Shown one piece after another: positions 18,711 to 52,276 of a DNA stretch of 64,000 nt. The notes under the pieces are model-generated. The model worked only from the letters and a program-made list of their open reading frames with translations. It was not told where the DNA came from and ran no database searches. Source of the DNA: Parcubacteria bacterium DG_74_1 (GTDB taxonomy: Bacteria; Patescibacteriota; Minisyncoccia; Minisyncoccales; DG-74-1); contig LJNE01000006.1 of NCBI GenBank assembly GCA_001303125.1, forward strand, positions 9,169-73,168, written 5' to 3'. Every line of letters starts with the position of its first letter. Within the stretch, counting starts at the first letter, position 1. Both the position numbers and the translations under genes were made by a program.

Positions 18711-19094
18711 TTATTTTTTAAAAAACCCTCTGTATATTTTTTTTACCTTCTCTCTATCGTTTAAGCTAAGGTTAAGGTCTCCAAATGCTCCGTATTTACC
18801 TTTGTCTAACTCGTGCTCTATATTTTCAGGTTCTCTTTTGGCTTTTTCAAAAAGCGTACCAACCAATTTCGGATCTGATATATGATGACCCAGTCTCAGT
18901 CTTTCGTCTCTCAATAAACCAGTAACCTTGAAAGCTTCATTACTTTCTAACCACCTGTCAAATTCTTTTGTAGAAAAGTGCGATCTTCCTTTATATGGCC
19001 CTGTATCTTTGGGCGGTTCTTTTCGGAGGGGCTTATCAAATTTTTCTTTAGCCTGTCCCTGTCTCAGCTCTTGTTTTTTTTCGATTAAAGCCAT
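18711..19094 (-). CDS. Hypothetical protein
   Basis: 127 aa, charged/basic, no motif recognised. It is packed tightly between recO and ileS. Confidence 0.5.
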   Translation of the reverse strand: MALIEKKQELRQGQAKEKFDKPLRKEPPKDTGPYKGRSHFSTKEFDRWLESNEAFKVTGLLRDERLRLGHHISDPKLVGTLFEKAKREPENIEHELDKGKYGAFGDLNLSLNDREKVKKIYRGFFKK

Positions 19095-19097
19095 ATT

Positions 19098-22000
19098 TTA
19101 ATTTTTTTTAATTGCTAACCATAGTTTTTGCTGGTCGACCATAATTTCTTTTTCAGCAGCAAAAACTTCTTTTTCTTTTTCTTTTCGGGCCAGATTTTTT
19201 ATCTTACCCTCTTTTAGAATAAGGTTCTTGTTCTTTTCCAGAATTTTGTTTAATCCTCCTGAACCAAAATAGTTTATTGAAACTTTATCTTCTGGTTTAA
19301 AGCGGGCAATTTTTCTCATTTCTTGGATTTGCCGAATAATTTCTCTAATGAACCCTTCTTCTCTCAATCCTGGAGTAATTCTGGTATCAAGCTCTACTTC
19401 TCCTTTAATTTTAGGATCAAAGACTATTTCTTTGACATTGACTTCTTCCTTGATTAGGCTTAATAACTCTGCTTTATTTCTCAATTCATAATTCTTAATT
19501 CTTAATTCATTTAAGGGCTGTCTAACTTTAATTTTTGCCCTAGCTCTCTCGGCTAGACTTTTAGTTACCATCTCTCTGGCTTTCTCCATTTTCTTTTCTA
19601 ATGCTCTACCAATCAATTTTTTACTCGCTTTCGGCCAATTCTCTAAATGAACAGAGTCTTGAATTTTTAATTTTGTCTGCCCTTTAGCGATTTTATCCTG
19701 TTTCGGCAGATTCTTAATTTTTTGATATATTTCTTCGGACAGAAAAGGAATAAATGGAGCGGTCAGCTTGCTTAAGGTCAAAAGTACATATTCTAAAGTA
19801 TCAGCGGCTTCGTCAAAGCGCTTACGCGATCTCCTAATATACCACAGAGAGAAATCATTAATAATAAAATCTTCAATTATTCTAGCGGCCCCAGTTATGT
19901 CGTATTTATCTAGTTTTTGAGTTGCCTCCTGGATAACTCTGTTTAATCTTGATATGACCCATCGGTCCAGTAAAGAAATGGCTTTGTACTGACCCATTTC
20001 TATATCAGAATTTGATTTAAGGTTAAATTTACTTGTCTTAATATCTGTAGCGTAAGTTCTGTAAAAGGTAAAACAATTCCAAAGAGTCAAAATGAATCTC
20101 TTAAGCGCCTGGTCAACATCTTTTTCCGAGAAAAGCTTAGAGTCGTCGGGCTGATTAATAGTGTAAAAATACCAGCGAGTGGCGTCGGCTCCGTATTTTT
20201 CAACAAGATACCAGGGATCAGTCACGTTCCCTTTCGATTTTGACATTTTTTCTCCCTTTTCATCTAAAACATGACCTACCGAAAGAACATTTTTATAGGA
20301 CGGACCCTTTCCAAGTAAAGAGGAGATAGCCAGTAAGGTATAGAACCATCCCCGAGTTTGATCAATTGCCTCTGAAATATATTCGGCCGGGAATTGAATT
20401 TTCTTATTAATCAAAGCTTTGTTCTCAAAGGGGTAGTGATACTGAGCGAAAGGCATGGCTCCGGAATCAAACCAACAGTCAATAACTTCAGGGACTCTTT
20501 CCATTGGGGCGTTACACTTTTGACAACAAAATTTTACTTCATCAATGTAAGGCCGGTGGAAATCTAATTCCATTTTTTCATTATAAGGCAGATCTTTGAA
20601 TTCAAATCTCCTGAGCTCTCCTGTTTTTATTTCTTTTTTCTTGATGATAATTCTTGTAAATCGTTTTAAATCATAGCTATAGTTCGCCTTTTCAAGTAAG
20701 GTTAGGGGTCGTTGATGGCCAATAATTAAAATGTTTTTCCCTTGATGTTTTCTATCAACTTGTTTTAAAAATTCGTACATTCTCTTCTCTATATCAGTAA
20801 AATTTTCTCCTTTCGGAGGATTGACCCGGAAACGCTTTGAATAATATTCCAAGGGAGAGAGTTCTTTTTCTTTGTCCCAAAACCTGCCAATTTCTTTCAC
20901 CGGCCTTCCGTTAAAAATACCAATATTTACTTCCCTAAGTTTTTTACTAAATTTGGGCCTTATTCCCAATTCTTTTCCGGCAATTTCAGCGGTTTGTTTT
21001 GTCCTTAAAAGATCTGACGAAAAGATCAGGTTAATTTTCTCCTTTTTTAATTTTTTGGTAGCTACTTTAACTTGTTCTTTTCCTTCTTTAGTTAAAGGAC
21101 AGGGTATTTTTTCTGGCCAACAAGCGGCAACATCTTTTAAATTTCTCAGGGATGTTCCATGTCTTAAAAGGAAATATTTGTTTTTGCTAAATTTTTGCGA
21201 CACTAAATCTTTCTTCGATCCGATTATTTCAAAACAACCACATTTTTTACATTGCCAAATGGGCAAAGGCGTCCCCCAGTATCTTTCTCTAGTTAAGGCC
21301 CAATCTTTTACTTCTTTCAGCCATTCGCCGAATCTTCCTTTTTTTAAATGGGCTGGAAGCCAGTTAGTTTTTTGATTATTTTTAATTAAATCTTTTTTGA
21401 TTTGAGTCATCCTAATAAACCAGGATTCTTTAGCGTAATAAAAAAGGGGCGAATGGCATCGCCAACAAAAAGGATAATCGTGTTCATATAATTCTCTTTT
21501 GAAAAGGATATTTCTATTTTTTAAATCCTCAATTATTAAGGGGTCAGCCTCTTTAATGAACATTCTCGCCCATTTCTTAACTCCCAACTTAAACCTCCCT
21601 TCTTCATCAACCGTTAAGAGTGTCGGCAAGTTATTCTTCTTGCCTGTTATCATGTCTTCTTCGCCAAAGGCCGGAGCTATATGAACCAACCCAGTTCCCT
21701 CTTCCAGAGAAACAAAGTCAGCCAGAATCACCCTGTAAGCCCCCTTAATAACCTCTTCACTGAAGGGATAGAGCGGTTGGTACCTTAAATCAACTAAATC
21801 TTTTCCCCTAAACTCCTTGACGACTTCTCCTTTCGCCCTGCAGGCCTTTATTCTTTCTTTGGCTAAAATTAAGTATTCTTTGTCAATTTTTACTTTAACG
21901 TAAGTAATTTCTGGGTTTACAGCTACCGCAACATTACCCGGCAACGTCCAGGGAGTAGTTGTCCAGACTAACAGAGAGGCGTTTTTGAATTCTGGATTTA

Positions 22001-22619
22001 AAACTGGAAACTTGATATAAATTGCTGGCTCTCTTATTTTTTCATAACCCAAAGCTACCTCATGACTTGATAGGCTTGTGCCACAACGAGCGCAGTAAGG
22101 GATCACCTTATAGTCTTTATATAAAAGTCCTTTTTGCCAAATTTGTTTAATAATCCACCAAACCGTTTCGATATAGTTCGGCATATAGGTAATATAAGGA
22201 TTTTCTGTGTCTAGCCAGAAGGCGATTCTTTCGGTTAAATTCTCCCAGTCTTTCTTATAATTCCAGACGGATTTCCGACATTTTTTGTTAAACTTAGCAA
22301 TTCCGTATTTTTCTATTTCTTTTTTTGATTTCAGCCCTAATTTTTTCTCAATTTCTAATTCTACCGGTAAACCGTGAGTATCCCAACCGGCCTTTCTCAA
22401 GACTTTAAAACCATGCATGGTTTTATATCGACAGATAATATCTTTAAAAACTCTAGTTAAAACATGATGGAGGCCGGGTTTGGCATTGGCTGTTGGCGGC
22501 CCTTCATAAAATACGAAATTCGGCGTCCTCTTGCGCTTCTGAATAGATTTTTCAAAAATTCTATTTCGCTGCCAAAATGTCAATATTTTCTTCTCAGTCT
22601 TGGGAAAATTTATTTCCAT
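19098..22619 (-). CDS. ileS: Isoleucyl-tRNA synthetase (type 2) carrying an internal histidine-phosphatase domain
   Basis: 1173 aa with HHVLTR-type HIGH, KMSKSKGN and a CP1 editing domain. About 200 extra residues (aa about 481-680) lie between the CKKCG zinc knuckle and DFHRPYID. They carry RHG, SSDLLRTKQTAE and IIGHQ motifs. Confidence 0.95.
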   Translation of the reverse strand: MEINFPKTEKKILTFWQRNRIFEKSIQKRKRTPNFVFYEGPPTANAKPGLHHVLTRVFKDIICRYKTMHGFKVLRKAGWDTHGLPVELEIEKKLGLKSKKEIEKYGIAKFNKKCRKSVWNYKKDWENLTERIAFWLDTENPYITYMPNYIETVWWIIKQIWQKGLLYKDYKVIPYCARCGTSLSSHEVALGYEKIREPAIYIKFPVLNPEFKNASLLVWTTTPWTLPGNVAVAVNPEITYVKVKIDKEYLILAKERIKACRAKGEVVKEFRGKDLVDLRYQPLYPFSEEVIKGAYRVILADFVSLEEGTGLVHIAPAFGEEDMITGKKNNLPTLLTVDEEGRFKLGVKKWARMFIKEADPLIIEDLKNRNILFKRELYEHDYPFCWRCHSPLFYYAKESWFIRMTQIKKDLIKNNQKTNWLPAHLKKGRFGEWLKEVKDWALTRERYWGTPLPIWQCKKCGCFEIIGSKKDLVSQKFSKNKYFLLRHGTSLRNLKDVAACWPEKIPCPLTKEGKEQVKVATKKLKKEKINLIFSSDLLRTKQTAEIAGKELGIRPKFSKKLREVNIGIFNGRPVKEIGRFWDKEKELSPLEYYSKRFRVNPPKGENFTDIEKRMYEFLKQVDRKHQGKNILIIGHQRPLTLLEKANYSYDLKRFTRIIIKKKEIKTGELRRFEFKDLPYNEKMELDFHRPYIDEVKFCCQKCNAPMERVPEVIDCWFDSGAMPFAQYHYPFENKALINKKIQFPAEYISEAIDQTRGWFYTLLAISSLLGKGPSYKNVLSVGHVLDEKGEKMSKSKGNVTDPWYLVEKYGADATRWYFYTINQPDDSKLFSEKDVDQALKRFILTLWNCFTFYRTYATDIKTSKFNLKSNSDIEMGQYKAISLLDRWVISRLNRVIQEATQKLDKYDITGAARIIEDFIINDFSLWYIRRSRKRFDEAADTLEYVLLTLSKLTAPFIPFLSEEIYQKIKNLPKQDKIAKGQTKLKIQDSVHLENWPKASKKLIGRALEKKMEKAREMVTKSLAERARAKIKVRQPLNELRIKNYELRNKAELLSLIKEEVNVKEIVFDPKIKGEVELDTRITPGLREEGFIREIIRQIQEMRKIARFKPEDKVSINYFGSGGLNKILEKNKNLILKEGKIKNLARKEKEKEVFAAEKEIMVDQQKLWLAIKKN

Positions 22620-22627
22620 GATTTTGT

Positions 22628-24169
22628 TTACATTCTCTCTGGAGCAGAAATTCCCATTAAAGCTAAAGTATTCTTTAAAACAATTTTAGTAGCCAAAATC
22701 AAAGCCAAACGAGCTTTTAACAAAGATTTGTCCTTCGCTAAAACCTTACAATCTCTGTAGAATCGATGGAAAGCAGTTGCCAACTCTGTCGAATATTGTG
22801 GTAATCGCTGCACTTGATAATCTTTAGCAGTCTCCTCAATAATCTCTGGTAATCTGATTAGCTGCTTGATCAAGTTAAACTCTGAAGGGTGAACTAACAA
22901 TTTCAGGTTGGAATCTTGGAATCGAGGATCGGAAATTTTTCTCAAGATACTACAGATTCTGGCGTGGGCGTATTGAACATAATAAACTGGATTTTTTTCT
23001 GATTGCTTTTTAGCTAACTCCAAATCAAATTCCATCTGGGTATCCAGCGACTTGGTTAGATATAAGAATCTGGCCACATCAAGGCCAACTTCATCAATTA
23101 AGTCTTCGAGGGTAACTATATTTCCTTTTCTTTTTGAGATTTTCCCCCGTTTTAGCCTGACCACCTGAGAAATTAAAATATCTAAATCTCCTTGGTATCC
23201 TAGCATTTTAGCTATCGCTTTTATTTTTGAAACATGCCCTTGGTGGTCAGCTCCCCAGATATTAATAATTTTTTTAAAACCTCTTTTAATTTTATAATCG
23301 TGGTAAGCAATATCGGTCAGGAAATACGTTGATTGGCCGTTTCTTCTGACTAAAACTTCATCTTTCTGGTTAAACCCTGAAAGGTCTAACCAGAGAGCAT
23401 TGTCTTTTTTGTAAACTAATTTTTTAGTTTCTAAAAAATCGTAGACTTTTTTTATCTTACCTTGGCGATATAGATTTTGCTCCGAAACCCACAAATCAAA
23501 TTTGATTTTCAGCTTTTCTTCTGTAAAACTCCTAATATCACCAAAAATATTTTGACCTAAGAGGTATCCTGCCTCGCTTTCTGATTTCACTTTTTTAAAG
23601 TAAGGTGCCAACCTCCGAATTACACGTTTCAAATGAGGAGTTAAATAACTTTTCCCCTGCCCTAAAGCTGTTCTTCCTAATTCCTGAATTTGAGTATTGT
23701 TTTTGGCGTCGTTAATATAATACTCTCTAAGCGCTCTGTATCCGGCCTTCTCCAAAATATTTGCTAAACAATCACCAAAAAAGGCTCCCCGGCCGTTACC
23801 AACGTGCAAAGGGCCGGTGGGATTAGCTGAAATAAATTCTACCAGAACCTTCTGGTGCTTCCCAATTTTTAATTCTCCGAACTTTTTGTCTCGTTTTAAA
23901 ATCTCCCTTACCTGTTTTTGTAAATGCTCTTTAGAAAGAAAAAAATTAATAAAACCATTCTTCGCCTCTACCCGCTCTAAAATAGTAGATTTTATCTGTT
24001 TGGCGATCTCTTGGGGATTTTCCTTGATCGCCATTGCCACATTAGTAGCGTAATCACCACAATCTTTTGCTGACGATCGGCTCACCTCAACTTCAACCTC
24101 TTTTTTATAGAGATTTTTGATTGCTCTGGCTGTCAATTTTTTGATTTTTTCTTTCATCATTTCCTTCAT
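22628..24169 (-). CDS. argS: Arginyl-tRNA synthetase
   Basis: 513 aa. SANPTGPLHVGNGR, the ADHQGH region, an MSKRKG-like loop (KISKRKGN) and a DALR anticodon-binding C-terminus. Confidence 0.95.
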   Translation of the reverse strand: MKEMMKEKIKKLTARAIKNLYKKEVEVEVSRSSAKDCGDYATNVAMAIKENPQEIAKQIKSTILERVEAKNGFINFFLSKEHLQKQVREILKRDKKFGELKIGKHQKVLVEFISANPTGPLHVGNGRGAFFGDCLANILEKAGYRALREYYINDAKNNTQIQELGRTALGQGKSYLTPHLKRVIRRLAPYFKKVKSESEAGYLLGQNIFGDIRSFTEEKLKIKFDLWVSEQNLYRQGKIKKVYDFLETKKLVYKKDNALWLDLSGFNQKDEVLVRRNGQSTYFLTDIAYHDYKIKRGFKKIINIWGADHQGHVSKIKAIAKMLGYQGDLDILISQVVRLKRGKISKRKGNIVTLEDLIDEVGLDVARFLYLTKSLDTQMEFDLELAKKQSEKNPVYYVQYAHARICSILRKISDPRFQDSNLKLLVHPSEFNLIKQLIRLPEIIEETAKDYQVQRLPQYSTELATAFHRFYRDCKVLAKDKSLLKARLALILATKIVLKNTLALMGISAPERM

Positions 24170-35730: not shown

Positions 35731-36756
35731 ATGATTGAAATTGACGGTTCATTTGGTTCCGGTGGTGGCCAGATTCTGCGTACGGCTTGTGCCCTGGCTG
35801 CGATAACTAAAAAGCCCTGCCACATATTTAATATAAGAGTTAAGCGACCAAAGCCTGGCTTGATGCCGCAACACCTTTTTGGTCTTCAGGCTCTAGCTCA
35901 GATTTGTAAAGCTAGACTAGAGGGTGACGAGCTTGAATCAAAAGAAATCAAATTTTATCCCGGAGAAATTTACAAAGACCGAATTACCATCAATATCCCA
36001 ACGGCAGGGAGCATTACTTTAATTTTGCAAGCATTAATCCCGCCAGCCCTATTTGTGCCAAGCATTACAAAAATTTCTTTTAATGGCGGGGCGACCGACA
36101 CCTTTTTCTCGCCGACGATCGATTATTTCAGATATGTTTTTTTGAAAATTATAGAAATAATGGGGGCGAAAGTTAAAATTAACGTTTCAAGAAGGGGTTA
36201 CTATCCAGAAGGTGAAGCAAAAATGGAGGCCGAAGTTTTTCCATCAGAATTAAAGAACCTTAATTTATTAAAAAGAGGGGCATTCAAAAAAATTACTGCA
36301 ATCTCCGGAGCCTCAACTTCTCTAAGAAATAAAAAGGTAGCTGAGCGTCAGTTAGCTGGAGTAAGAGAAGTTTTGGGTAAATTTAAATTACCAACTGAGG
36401 AAAAAATTGAATATTTTGATGTTTGTTGCCCGGGAAGCCAAATTTGTTTGATCGCCGAGTTTGAAAATACAACAATTGGCACCGATAATCTTGGAAGGCT
36501 TAATAAAAGAGCTGAAGATATTGGAAAAGAAGCGGCTTTAGAGCTCCTGAAAGAACAAAAATCTGGAACTTGTTTAGACAAATATTTGGCGGACCAAATT
36601 CTTCCTTATCTGGCCCTCTTGCCCGGGAAAAGCCAGGTCGCTTGTTCAGAAATTACAAAACATTCCCGAACTAACATTTGGGTAATTGAAAAATTCCTAG
36701 ATGGGGAATTCGAAATAGAAAATAGTTTAATCTCTTGGAGTCCTAAAAAAATTTAA
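35731..36756 (+). CDS. rtcA: RNA 3'-terminal phosphate cyclase
   Basis: 341 aa. IEIDGSFGSGGGQILRTACALAAITKKPCHIFNIR..RPKPGLMPQH..GGATD matches the RtcA family pattern. Confidence 0.9.
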   Translation: MIEIDGSFGSGGGQILRTACALAAITKKPCHIFNIRVKRPKPGLMPQHLFGLQALAQICKARLEGDELESKEIKFYPGEIYKDRITINIPTAGSITLILQALIPPALFVPSITKISFNGGATDTFFSPTIDYFRYVFLKIIEIMGAKVKINVSRRGYYPEGEAKMEAEVFPSELKNLNLLKRGAFKKITAISGASTSLRNKKVAERQLAGVREVLGKFKLPTEEKIEYFDVCCPGSQICLIAEFENTTIGTDNLGRLNKRAEDIGKEAALELLKEQKSGTCLDKYLADQILPYLALLPGKSQVACSEITKHSRTNIWVIEKFLDGEFEIENSLISWSPKKI

Positions 36757-50833: not shown

Positions 50834-52276
50834 TTATTCTCCCTTAATTACCGCTAATGGTTTTAATTTTACTACTTTTTTGGACAAGCCAGCGTTATGG
50901 ACTACTCCTACCACGTCGTCAACATTTTTATAGGCCATTGGGGCTTCTTCTGCTATCCCTCGAAGATTCCAACATTTAACAATAATACCTTTGGATTTTA
51001 ACTCTTTTAGCAAATTTTGTCCAGAAACCCTTCTGGTAGCTTCGTGACGAGACATGGTTCTACCCGCGCCATGATTTGTCGAGAAAAATGCGTCTCTCCC
51101 AGTATTTACTCCGACCAGGACATAGGAGGCGGTCCCCATTGAGCCGGGAATCAAAACCGGTTGGCCAACCGCTCGGTATTTCTGAGGAACCTCGGGATGA
51201 CTAGGGGGAAAGGCTCTCGTTGCCCCTTTTCTATGGAGACAAAGTTCTAATGTTTCTCCTTCAATTTCATGTTTCTCGATTTTAGCAATATTATGGGCCA
51301 CATCATAAACTGTAGTTAAGTTTGTAGATTTTTCTCCCAAAACTGACCTCCAGGCCTTCCTGACAAAGTGGGCGATTGTTTGGCGATTGGCCCAAGCATA
51401 ATTGGCTCCGGCAGCCATAGCTGATAGATATTTTTGTCCTTCAGGAGAATTAATCGGGCAGGCAGCTAACTCTCTATCGGGCAATCTTATACCGTATTTA
51501 TCCATCGTCCCCATCATTACCCTTATATAATCAGTAGCAATTTGATGACCTAGGCCCCGAGAACCAGTGTGAATCATGATAACGACCTGTTCTAAAAATA
51601 AACCGAAAATTTCAGCTGTCTTCCCGTCAAAAACTTCGTCTACTTTTTGAATTTCCAAGAAATGATTTCCGGAACCTAAGGTCCCCACCTGGTCTCTGCC
51701 CCTGTTTTTGGCATGATCGGAAACGAGAGAAGCGTCAGCTTGAGGAAGCCTCCCATTCGATTCGCAGCTCTCTAAGTCCTCCTTTTCGCCATAACCCTGT
51801 TCAACTACTCTCTGGGCCCCTCTCTCTAAAATCTTATTAATAGAAGCGGCGTCTAGCTTTATTTGCCTTCCCCGTCCTAAGCCAGAAGGAACTTCTTTTT
51901 GGATTTCTATTGCTAAGCCCTCTAAATAGTTTCTAATTTCTTCTTCTTTATAATCTGATTTTAAAAGCCTCATGCCGCAGTTAATATCATAGCCAACGCC
52001 GCCGGGCGAAATCACCCCACTCTTTATATCCATAGCGGCTACTCCGCCAATTGGGAAGCCGTACCCTTCATGCATATCCGGCATAGCCAAGCTATAATTT
52101 ACTATTCCCGGTAAAGAGGCTACATTAACCAACTGGTCAAGCGATTTATCCCGAAGGGCGCTTTCTAACATTATTTCTGAAACGTAGGCCCTAGCCGCTA
52201 CTCGCATATCTGACCTAAACCCTTTAGGAATCTCCCATAGCGAATCATTAATTTTTATAAAATCAGATTTTTTCAT
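50834..52276 (-). CDS. rtcB: RNA ligase RtcB
   Basis: 480 aa. PDMHEGYGFPIGGV, GYDINCGMR, GSGNHFLE, HTGSRGLGHQ and NHGAGR provide the metal and GMP-His motifs. Confidence 0.96.
   Translation of the reverse strand: MKKSDFIKINDSLWEIPKGFRSDMRVAARAYVSEIMLESALRDKSLDQLVNVASLPGIVNYSLAMPDMHEGYGFPIGGVAAMDIKSGVISPGGVGYDINCGMRLLKSDYKEEEIRNYLEGLAIEIQKEVPSGLGRGRQIKLDAASINKILERGAQRVVEQGYGEKEDLESCESNGRLPQADASLVSDHAKNRGRDQVGTLGSGNHFLEIQKVDEVFDGKTAEIFGLFLEQVVIMIHTGSRGLGHQIATDYIRVMMGTMDKYGIRLPDRELAACPINSPEGQKYLSAMAAGANYAWANRQTIAHFVRKAWRSVLGEKSTNLTTVYDVAHNIAKIEKHEIEGETLELCLHRKGATRAFPPSHPEVPQKYRAVGQPVLIPGSMGTASYVLVGVNTGRDAFFSTNHGAGRTMSRHEATRRVSGQNLLKELKSKGIIVKCWNLRGIAEEAPMAYKNVDDVVGVVHNAGLSKKVVKLKPLAVIKGE

Follow-up and report, generated by a model that had tools for sequence, protein, structure and literature searches.

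A PhoE-like histidine phosphatase domain nested in isoleucyl-tRNA synthetases of Patescibacteria, and its free-standing counterpart next to ileS in sister lineages

Few enzymes have been studied as thoroughly as the aminoacyl-tRNA synthetases (aaRS), and where these possess accessory domains, real biology has usually come to light, be it editing, tRNA binding or signalling. In the class Ia enzymes, insertion modules such as the CP1 editing domain or the leucine-specific domain of leucyl-tRNA synthetase (LeuRS) are folded domains that are set into the Rossmann catalytic domain via two linkers, and CP1 brings along its own hydrolytic active site, which serves the tRNA 3' end. One family of isoleucyl-tRNA synthetases (IleRS), designated ileS_w_GNAT (NCBIfam NF040702), contains an additional enzyme domain, implying that the IleRS scaffold tolerates such additions. 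Here we describe the ileS gene in a stretch of 64,000 nucleotides from Parcubacteria bacterium DG_74_1 (contig LJNE01000006.1; the whole stretch is referred to as the window). It encodes a type-2 IleRS whose CP3 loop harbours, likewise via two linkers, a histidine phosphatase domain, denoted P in the following. The nesting of the phosphatase in IleRS is real and is confirmed by its recurrence in relatives. A whole second enzyme with an apparently intact active site is thereby found in the IleRS catalytic domain across a large uncultivated bacterial radiation, and the intermediate stage of its evolution can still be observed, in that the same enzyme is encoded elsewhere by a translationally coupled gene next door or in fusion with arginyl-tRNA synthetase (ArgRS). 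Judging from sequence and gene order, we see a slightly better than even chance that P is a competent PhoE-like phosphatase, captured from a neighbouring gene and serving as an accessory enzyme of the synthetase.

The protein is encoded in a single uninterrupted frame and is 100% identical to a public entry, 'isoleucyl-tRNA synthase [Parcubacteria bacterium DG_74_1]' (P0121). Pfam recognises tRNA-synt_1 (E 2e-112), Anticodon_1 and DUF5915, and the NCBIfam equivalog TIGR00392 identifies the whole protein as ileS (886 bits against a cut-off of 621). This score, the KMSKS motif, a GXHH variant of the class I signature, the CP1 editing domain and the type-2 C-terminal domains together place it among the type-2 enzymes. 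Outside the insert, homology to Thermus thermophilus IleRS (1ILE) is full-length (888 bits), and the alignment falls into two blocks, residues 2-474 pairing with chain residues 7-478 and residues 685-1029 with 488-818; about 210 residues thus replace a Thermus loop of about nine. The part upstream of the insert holds the first Rossmann half, the CP core, the CP1 editing domain, CP2 and the start of CP3 with zinc knuckle 1, whereas the second Rossmann half, KMSKS, the anticodon-binding domain and DUF5915 lie downstream. Within the signature motif, alignment A2 (consensus PGIHH) shows no variation at G49 and H51 and conservation of at least 90% at H52. The G/AXHH form of this motif confers mupirocin hyper-resistance in type-2 IleRS (PMC10485003). 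The two cysteine pairs flanking the insert correspond to the CP3 zinc site of the T. thermophilus enzyme (CP3 nomenclature and zinc motif after PMC7191050). Because the synthetase motifs are intact and no inserted locus shows a second ileS match, we infer that aminoacylation is retained in the presence of the insert. An open reading frame (ORF) of 167 aa runs antisense to the phosphatase segment (20872-21375, plus strand), lies wholly within ileS and is almost certainly no gene.

P occupies the loop between the zinc knuckles CKKC and CCQKC. The Pfam family PF00300 (His_Phos_1) matches residues 483-661 (E 3.1e-31; 109 bits against a gathering threshold of 21.7), and this match falls between the two halves of the IleRS catalytic domain. 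The domain boundaries were set by aligning the protein with free-standing homologues of P and with uninserted IleRS of relatives. According to these alignments, the C-terminal linker DLPYNEKME is absent from free-standing phosphatases and from uninserted synthetases alike; the native IleRS sequence LDFHRPYID resumes directly behind it (D686 in 76 of 78 inserted relatives). P contains the motifs FLLRHGTS, PLTKEGKEQ, IFSSDLLRTKQTAEIA, REVNIGIFNG, PPKGENF and ILIIGHQ. The catalytic set R486, H487, R539, E/D563 and H635 is present in all 78 inserted relatives, as are the four zinc cysteines and KMSKS, and H487 is the predicted phospho-acceptor nucleophile. Mean pairwise identity is 54% for P, 75-78% for the IleRS catalytic core and 61% for the C-terminal domains, with linkers that are almost invariant. 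The insert and its flanks do not differ in GC content (0.33-0.35). One arginine (R158, corresponding to R637 in the window protein) that is invariant in an alignment in which 27 of 28 sequences are free-standing (A1) is relaxed in the inserted forms (R in 30, L in 28, D in 9). The sequences show a phosphatase domain that is intact and evolves under purifying selection.

Structure prediction leads to the same superfamily. The isolated domain was modelled by AlphaFold2 (AF2) with a pLDDT of 94.3 and a pTM of 0.90, and Foldseek returned PspA (4IJ6), PhoE (1H2E), CobC (6NRU), GpgP (4QIH) and the riboflavin-pathway HFP (9MMH) with TM scores of 0.72-0.78 (probability 1.00 for the first four). A profile of the P family matches PhoE (1EBB/1H2E) at E 5e-19. 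Score, residues and the alpha/beta phosphoglycerate mutase (PGM)-like fold thus all put P into branch 1 of the histidine phosphatases. Within NCBIfam, the best match is CobC (TIGR03162), at 92.1 bits against a cut-off of 162.9; P also stays below the cut-offs for PspA (NF045917; 70.8 against 350) and cofactor-dependent phosphoglycerate mutase (dPGM; TIGR01258, 27.7 against 81.7; NF038349, 72.7 against 225), and its match to the SixA equivalog is weak (29 bits, under the cut-off). Since no equivalog cut-off is reached, we regard P as a distinct PhoE-like family and not as a phosphoglycerate mutase. Its members bear a C-W-P-E-K signature after RHG and are very basic, with a median isoelectric point (pI) of 10.1 and a net charge of about +24 per ~196 aa, the median pI of the proteome of the window being 9.25. 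No second copy of P is found within the 64 kb of the window. The AF2 model of the full-length protein is poor (pTM 0.52, pLDDT below 50 in the Rossmann core, a Foldseek root-mean-square deviation of about 20 Å to IleRS structures); its CP1 editing domain nevertheless superimposes on 1WK8 with a TM score of 0.9.

These results bear out an earlier note on this DNA, which had been written from the sequence of the window and had described a complete histidine phosphatase domain inside IleRS: the PF00300 score, the catalytic residues and the predicted fold agree on it, so that an insert lacking such a fold, which the note had named as grounds for refutation, is not what was found. The motifs quoted there all occur in the ORF, and the limits given for the insert, 20574-21182 (aa 480-682), are right within a few residues, as the alignments to 1ILE and to relatives, one of the checks it had proposed, now establish (core, aa 480-675). 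Its description of a continuous frame with intact synthetase motifs is correct, and the phosphatase site does appear competent as far as the five catalytic residues tell. The label 'PGM-like' is apt at the level of the superfamily and fails when understood as phosphoglycerate mutase. The roles that the note put forward for the domain were given as speculation.

How widespread is this architecture? One genome per species was scanned with a profile of the insert, and loci were then typed by tblastn with the N-terminal part of IleRS, P, the C-terminal part and ArgRS. The scan yielded 80 species-level loci, all of them from Patescibacteria except for one labelled WOR-3, which probably stems from a mis-binned genome; many organism labels of metagenome-assembled genomes ('uncultured Candidatus Saccharibacteria') are unreliable. 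Among the scanned loci, P occurs in only two arrangements, either nested in ileS or upstream of it as a gene of its own. The nested form accounts for 38 of the 80 loci, plus one partial locus (L005), and the frame runs through the N-terminal part, P and the C-terminal part without interruption, the exceptions being the broken L005 and four loci truncated at contig ends. In addition, the best 120 protein clusters (at least 61% identity) all carry PF00300 together with IleRS domains. The survey of IleRS in the candidate phyla radiation (CPR) that the earlier note had suggested hence finds the insertion widespread in Patescibacteria.

This recurrence refutes the notion that the nested phosphatase is an artefact or a selfish element, be it an assembly chimera, an intein or an inserted mobile element; we attach a negligible probability to this reading. 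A gene-sized insert is admittedly odd, and ileS is broken downstream of the insert in L005. Yet identical junctions are shared by the 38 loci, L005 and over 120 protein clusters that stem from independent samples, and the insert matches its flanks in composition. Pfam detects no Hint, intein or transposase family in the protein, and the junctions, which read ...SQKFSK|NKYF... and ...FEFK|DLPYNEK..., are devoid of the Cys/Ser...His-Asn residues of inteins. The earlier note's dismissal of a fusion artefact and of an intein accordingly holds, the architecture being present in dozens of independent genomes. In L005 itself (1-1881; GCA_002774735.1, Nealsonbacteria CG10), the frame of the nested ileS breaks off some 50 aa past the insert, where a partial ORF of 305 aa is followed by one of 289 aa and about 25 IleRS residues are unmatched between the tblastn pieces; the break could represent a frameshift, a pseudogene or an assembly problem. 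P-bearing proteins of about 750, 860 and 920-980 aa that start at a conserved methionine also recur, which raised the idea of a split IleRS. We rejected it and consider them truncated genes, because the one that was checked (P0300) starts 32 nucleotides from a contig end.

Table 1. Coordinates in the window of ileS, its synthetase parts and nested phosphatase, and of other genes considered here
Feature	Position	Strand	Basis
ileS coding sequence, 1173 aa, type-2 IleRS with nested phosphatase	19098-22619	-	ORF, Pfam, NCBIfam
IleRS N-terminal part, aa 1-474	21198-22619	-	1ILE alignment (residues 7-478)
Class I signature motif GLHH (non-canonical GXHH), aa 49-52	22464-22475	-	sequence; motif type of PMC10485003
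CP3 zinc knuckle 1, CKKC, aa 457-460	21240-21251	-	C457 and C460 in 78/78
N-linker QKFSK, aa 475-479	21183-21197	-	Q in 70/78, F477 in 77/78, S in 65/78
Histidine phosphatase (PhoE-like) core, aa 480-675	20595-21182	-	full-length homology to free-standing ~198-aa proteins
RHG motif, aa 486-488	21156-21164	-	R486 and H487 in 78/78
Catalytic R539	21003-21005	-	78/78
Catalytic acid E563	20931-20933	-	E in 62, D in 16 of 78
Second catalytic His, H635	20715-20717	-	78/78
C-linker DLPYNEKME, aa 676-684	20568-20594	-	P678 in 76/78, N680 in 66/78
IleRS C-terminal part, aa 685-1173 and stop codon	19098-20567	-	Pfam, 1ILE alignment
HRPY ahead of zinc knuckle 2	20547-20558	-	
CP3 zinc knuckle 2, CCQKC, aa 698-702	20514-20528	-	C699 and C702 in 78/78
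KMSKS, aa 791-795	20235-20249	-	78/78 inserted relatives
argS	22628-24169	-	directly upstream of ileS, 8-nt gap; position of free-standing P in relatives
RtcA RNA 3'-phosphate cyclase	35731-36756	+	Pfam E 1e-74
RtcB RNA ligase	50834-52276	-	Pfam E 1e-173

Where does the phosphatase come from? The insert is most closely related not to other inserts but to free-standing His_Phos_1 proteins of 198-200 aa, with 60-70% identity. Their genes, counted in about 43 other species, are located directly downstream of argS and directly upstream of an ileS of normal length (953-963 aa). The order argS-P-ileS or P-ileS on one strand is shown by 41 of the 80 loci at species level (45 when all 85 fetched loci are counted), with gaps between P and ileS that mostly measure 30 nucleotides or less and, at several loci, with overlapping stop and start codons. 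In the species-level set, a P-family gene resides away from any aaRS gene only once (L036). Synteny in the upstream-type loci (L20, IF3, SmpB / argS, P, ileS, a small ORF, recO, a DUF7619 protein, a class II aaRS) is that of the window apart from the position of P. As a free-standing orthologue adjoins its fusion partner elsewhere, P and ileS constitute a two-gene module of the Rosetta-stone kind.

An IleRS tree computed with P removed (neighbour-joining on Kimura-corrected distances with midpoint rooting; 61 taxa, 911 columns, 100 bootstraps) groups 27 of 28 nested forms together (95%). Their sister group consists of upstream-type sequences (100%), as do three clades that branch outside the nested one (100, 99 and 80%); the remaining nested form, from Azambacteria (L073), falls apart from the others. 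By parsimony on this tree, the separate gene would be ancestral and the nested form derived, mainly through one event. A neighbour-joining tree of P (183 columns) has bootstraps near zero and therefore neither backs nor contradicts a single insertion. For the same reason, the discordance at one locus (L001), where P shows 69% identity while IleRS shows 42%, is unexplained and provides no evidence of transfer. Gene order and the IleRS tree thus point to P as an operon neighbour, orthologous to the gene that intervenes between argS and ileS and captured into ileS, and not as an acquisition from outside. A plausible route would begin with the duplication of P-ileS in tandem and be completed by two in-frame deletions.

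Several of these loci show peculiarities of their own. In L001 (1313-5853; GCA_043814215.1), a cassette resembling a diversity-generating retroelement, with bAvd, an RVT_1 reverse transcriptase and a protein of 1015 aa, lies directly upstream of P-ileS in the usual place of argS. L058 (6573-7592) has an ORF of 215 aa, and L074 (6560-7935) has ORFs of 113 and 338 aa, between P and ileS, with P still directly behind argS; these intervening genes are unrelated and not conserved. The two loci belong to the deepest upstream-type clade, whose IleRS is of a different subtype with about 40% identity. Between ileS and recO, the window has an ORF of 127 aa (18711-19094, minus strand) that has no Pfam match, and ORFs of 125-142 aa are present at this position in L001 and L005 as well.

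P has entered synthetases more than once and in more than one place. When its profile was run against 1.84 billion representative sequences, 110 matches at E 1e-30 or better were obtained, roughly half of them free-standing and half embedded, as read from their lengths. Among the P-bearing proteins of at least 300 aa that were fetched, 169 carry one P at the CP3 site (site 1). Five give two matches there; four of these are true tandem copies, and in the fifth (P0224, 1174 aa) one domain is split into two adjacent matches. Two more sites were recognised, site 2 between YPFEN and FPADY (window aa ~732-742) and site 3 just before the anticodon-binding domain (aa ~858-883). One protein combines sites 1 and 2, one sites 1 and 3, two sites 2 and 3, and one has P at site 2 only. 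Two contigs (L069, 4504-8607; L071, 2145-6248) encode an IleRS of 1368 aa with complete phosphatase domains in the CP3 loop and between YPFEN and FPADY, and both domains keep RHG and the second catalytic histidine. The third site or tandem copies are seen in P0257, P0346, P0389 and P0302.

Capture also extends to other hosts. In P0275, P is attached to the C terminus of ArgRS (L091/L092, 5001-7070; 70-kb contigs from two samples). The locus keeps the synteny of the window (PolX, TreT, L20, L35, IF3, SmpB / argS-P / recO, DUF7619, class II aaRS), with ileS missing from it. P0316 (contig L090) joins P to Sua5/TsaC of the t6A pathway, P0365 joins a His_Phos_1 domain to QueC of the queuosine pathway, and a ValRS-like fragment, P0245, bears four His_Phos_1 domains, one of which comes after GHRIPVW, the structural equivalent of site 1 in IleRS. 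These TsaC, QueC and ValRS fusions carry less weight, because each is a single cluster and the QueC and ValRS copies are without WPEK.

How might a phosphatase assist a tRNA synthetase? Judging from its intact active site, its constant association with synthetase genes and its repeated capture, P is likely to be an active phosphomonoesterase and probably works together with IleRS and ArgRS. Given the occupation of further IleRS loops, the tandem copies and the ArgRS fusion, we envision that P serves the class I tRNA synthetases as an accessory enzyme and that its tethering has been selected. Tethering and translational coupling mainly help enzymes that act on macromolecules, and P is markedly basic; for these reasons we would favour tRNA or the synthetase as its target. 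The specific assignment is tentative: our leading guess, though it has clearly less than an even chance, is that the substrate might be a phosphate on a macromolecular partner of the synthetase, with a 2'/3'-phosphorylated tRNA 3' end as the first candidate. A tRNA with such an end cannot be charged. P would heal it before aminoacylation, with H487 attacking the phosphate to form a phospho-histidine, E563 protonating the leaving ribose hydroxyl, and water finally releasing inorganic phosphate from the phospho-histidine. RNA 3'-phosphate ends appear to be part of the biology of this organism, since both RtcA and RtcB are encoded in the window, in agreement with what the earlier note had said of its chemistry. 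Neither gene is linked to ileS, from which they are separated by about 15 and 30 kb.

A number of considerations weigh against this proposal. We know of no histidine phosphatase that acts on RNA ends, and the nearest characterised relatives (PhoE, PspA, CobC, GpgP, the riboflavin HFP) are small-molecule enzymes throughout. Because a cap region of PhoE size is kept, the active site of P is expected to be a pocket. TsaC and QueC, the hosts of two of the fusions, bind no tRNA themselves and would better fit a small-molecule product. The strong preference for IleRS over other synthetases is left without explanation, and the full-length AF2 model is too poor to tell where the active site of P would sit with respect to the path of the tRNA. 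Moreover, the presumed direction from upstream gene to insert is a parsimony argument made on a distance tree, and the P tree lacks resolution. Finally, the literature on CP domains (PMC7191050 among it) reports no tRNA contact for CP3.

P might alternatively hydrolyse a small-molecule product, either pyrophosphate (PPi) or a nucleotide monophosphate, and thereby pull or tune amino-acid activation. We regard this main rival as unlikely, though little more so than the tRNA-end reading, and it draws on two facts: every host found (IleRS, ArgRS, the ValRS-like protein, Sua5/TsaC and QueC) splits ATP into AMP and PPi, and the characterised relatives of P, among them CobC with its nucleoside-5'-phosphate analogue substrate, all act on small molecules and have a capped pocket such as P itself seems to have. 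A query with E. coli Ppa found no family-I pyrophosphatase in the window, although 64 kb are uninformative for the genome. On the other hand, tethering would be of little kinetic use for a freely diffusing small molecule, the destruction of AMP would be wasteful in an organism presumed to depend on salvage, and two of the hosts are known from single fusion clusters, the QueC copy, like that of ValRS, being without the family signature. Nor are branch-1 histidine phosphatases, to our knowledge, established pyrophosphatases. P might also be a protein phosphatase that guards the synthetase, removing an inhibitory phosphate from IleRS, ArgRS or another bound protein. Hip-like kinase toxins phosphorylate the class I synthetases GltX and TrpS, and the histidine phosphatase superfamily does include protein phosphatases (SixA, PGAM5, Sts-1). 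A tethered or stoichiometric enzyme would be sensible for such a macromolecular substrate, and the three insertion sites (aa 475-685, ~732-742 and ~858-883) flank the catalytic part that bears KMSKS (791-795). The idea is improbable nonetheless, for no kinase partner is seen in the window or the loci, and P is akin to the capped small-molecule enzymes and not to SixA.

Conceivably, there is no mechanistic link at all: a housekeeping metabolic phosphatase, for instance of the phosphoserine or sugar-phosphate type, may simply have been part of a very stable cluster of translation genes, inserted neutrally and then become frozen. P scores as a generic PhoE-like enzyme, and gene order at the locus is extremely conserved whatever the function, with recO and the DUF7619 protein as equally fixed neighbours; CP3, for its part, is variable, peripheral and tolerant of very different topologies (PMC7191050). 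We nevertheless deem mere coincidence unlikely, because it would have to account for repeated capture (three IleRS sites, tandem copies, the ArgRS fusion), for the evolution of new and almost invariant linkers, for overlapping stop and start codons in the upstream forms and for a family that almost never leaves the vicinity of an aaRS gene. Loss of catalysis, with P only docking or stabilising CP3, is more improbable still: the relaxation of R637 in inserted forms would agree with a pseudo-enzyme, but the five catalytic positions are kept in each of the 78 inserted proteins and also in the second copies of double-insert proteins. A literature link to a peptide-nucleotide antibiotic and a HIT hydrolase was considered as well and is not relevant to P.

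If P does act with the synthetase, the Rosetta-stone signal would indicate a phosphatase reaction that is coupled to tRNA charging in organisms with minimal genomes, and we know of no such step. That tethered P represents a new quality-control or repair step in tRNA charging across a large Patescibacteria branch, either by removing a blocking phosphate from tRNA ends or as a pyrophosphatase devoted to adenylate-forming enzymes, is a real possibility, if clearly less than an even one. In its tRNA-end version, P may constitute a second 'editing-like' active site beside CP1 that acts at the synthetase itself. In both versions, the histidine phosphatases would gain a catalytic function that is new to their superfamily, and the nested enzyme would be a bifunctional aminoacyl-tRNA synthetase of a kind not seen before; alternatively, the case may reveal how CPR bacteria cope with damaged tRNA or manage their PPi economy.

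To what extent do known systems resemble this one? PhoE (YhfR) of Geobacillus stearothermophilus (1EBB/1H2E), PspA (4IJ5), CobC (6NRU/6E4B), GpgP (Rv2419c) and HFP (9MMH) have fold and branch in common with P, along with the R-H-R-E-H catalytic set, a length of about 200 aa and the cap subdomain. Identity to this group amounts to only 18-26%, and P is set apart by its C-W-P-E-K signature, a pI of about 10 and its linkage to aaRS. On the synthetase side, type-2 enzymes such as 1ILE and Priestia megaterium IleRS2 (8C8U) share with the window protein the zinc-binding CP3, CP1 editing, KMSKS and the type-2 C-terminal domains, and GLHH matches the described GXHH variant (PMC10485003); in none of the solved or described IleRS, however, is a second enzyme set into CP3. 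Neither a phosphatase nor Patescibacteria are mentioned in a 2026 survey that covered about 96,000 IleRS sequences along with the architecture of their domains. The AARS Online paper mentions no phosphatase insert in IleRS, and in the full-text literature we found no published description of an aaRS whose catalytic domain harbours a nested phosphatase that also has a free-standing operon form. The sequences themselves are already public under generic names (several inserted proteins are merely called 'class I tRNA ligase family protein' at NCBI, presumably because the insert disrupts naming); what is new is the nested phosphatase, its free-standing operon form and the history of its capture.

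Among synthetases with an extra enzyme, ileS_w_GNAT is the counterpart of the window protein, but its addition is a GNAT acetyltransferase domain and it belongs to another IleRS lineage (the window protein reaches 300 bits against a cut-off of 1999). A CobC-like His_Phos_1 domain is also joined to a nucleic-acid enzyme in the RNase H/acid phosphatase of the Rv2228c type (NF005567), which is the second-best NCBIfam match of the insert (77 bits, far under the cut-off of 326); there the fusion is end to end and the partner a different one, whereas P is nested. In architecture, P resembles the class Ia modules introduced at the outset. The CP1 and LeuRS modules are ancient folds specific to aaRS, whereas P would be a recent capture from a general phosphatase superfamily, and, unlike theirs, its free and nested states still exist side by side.

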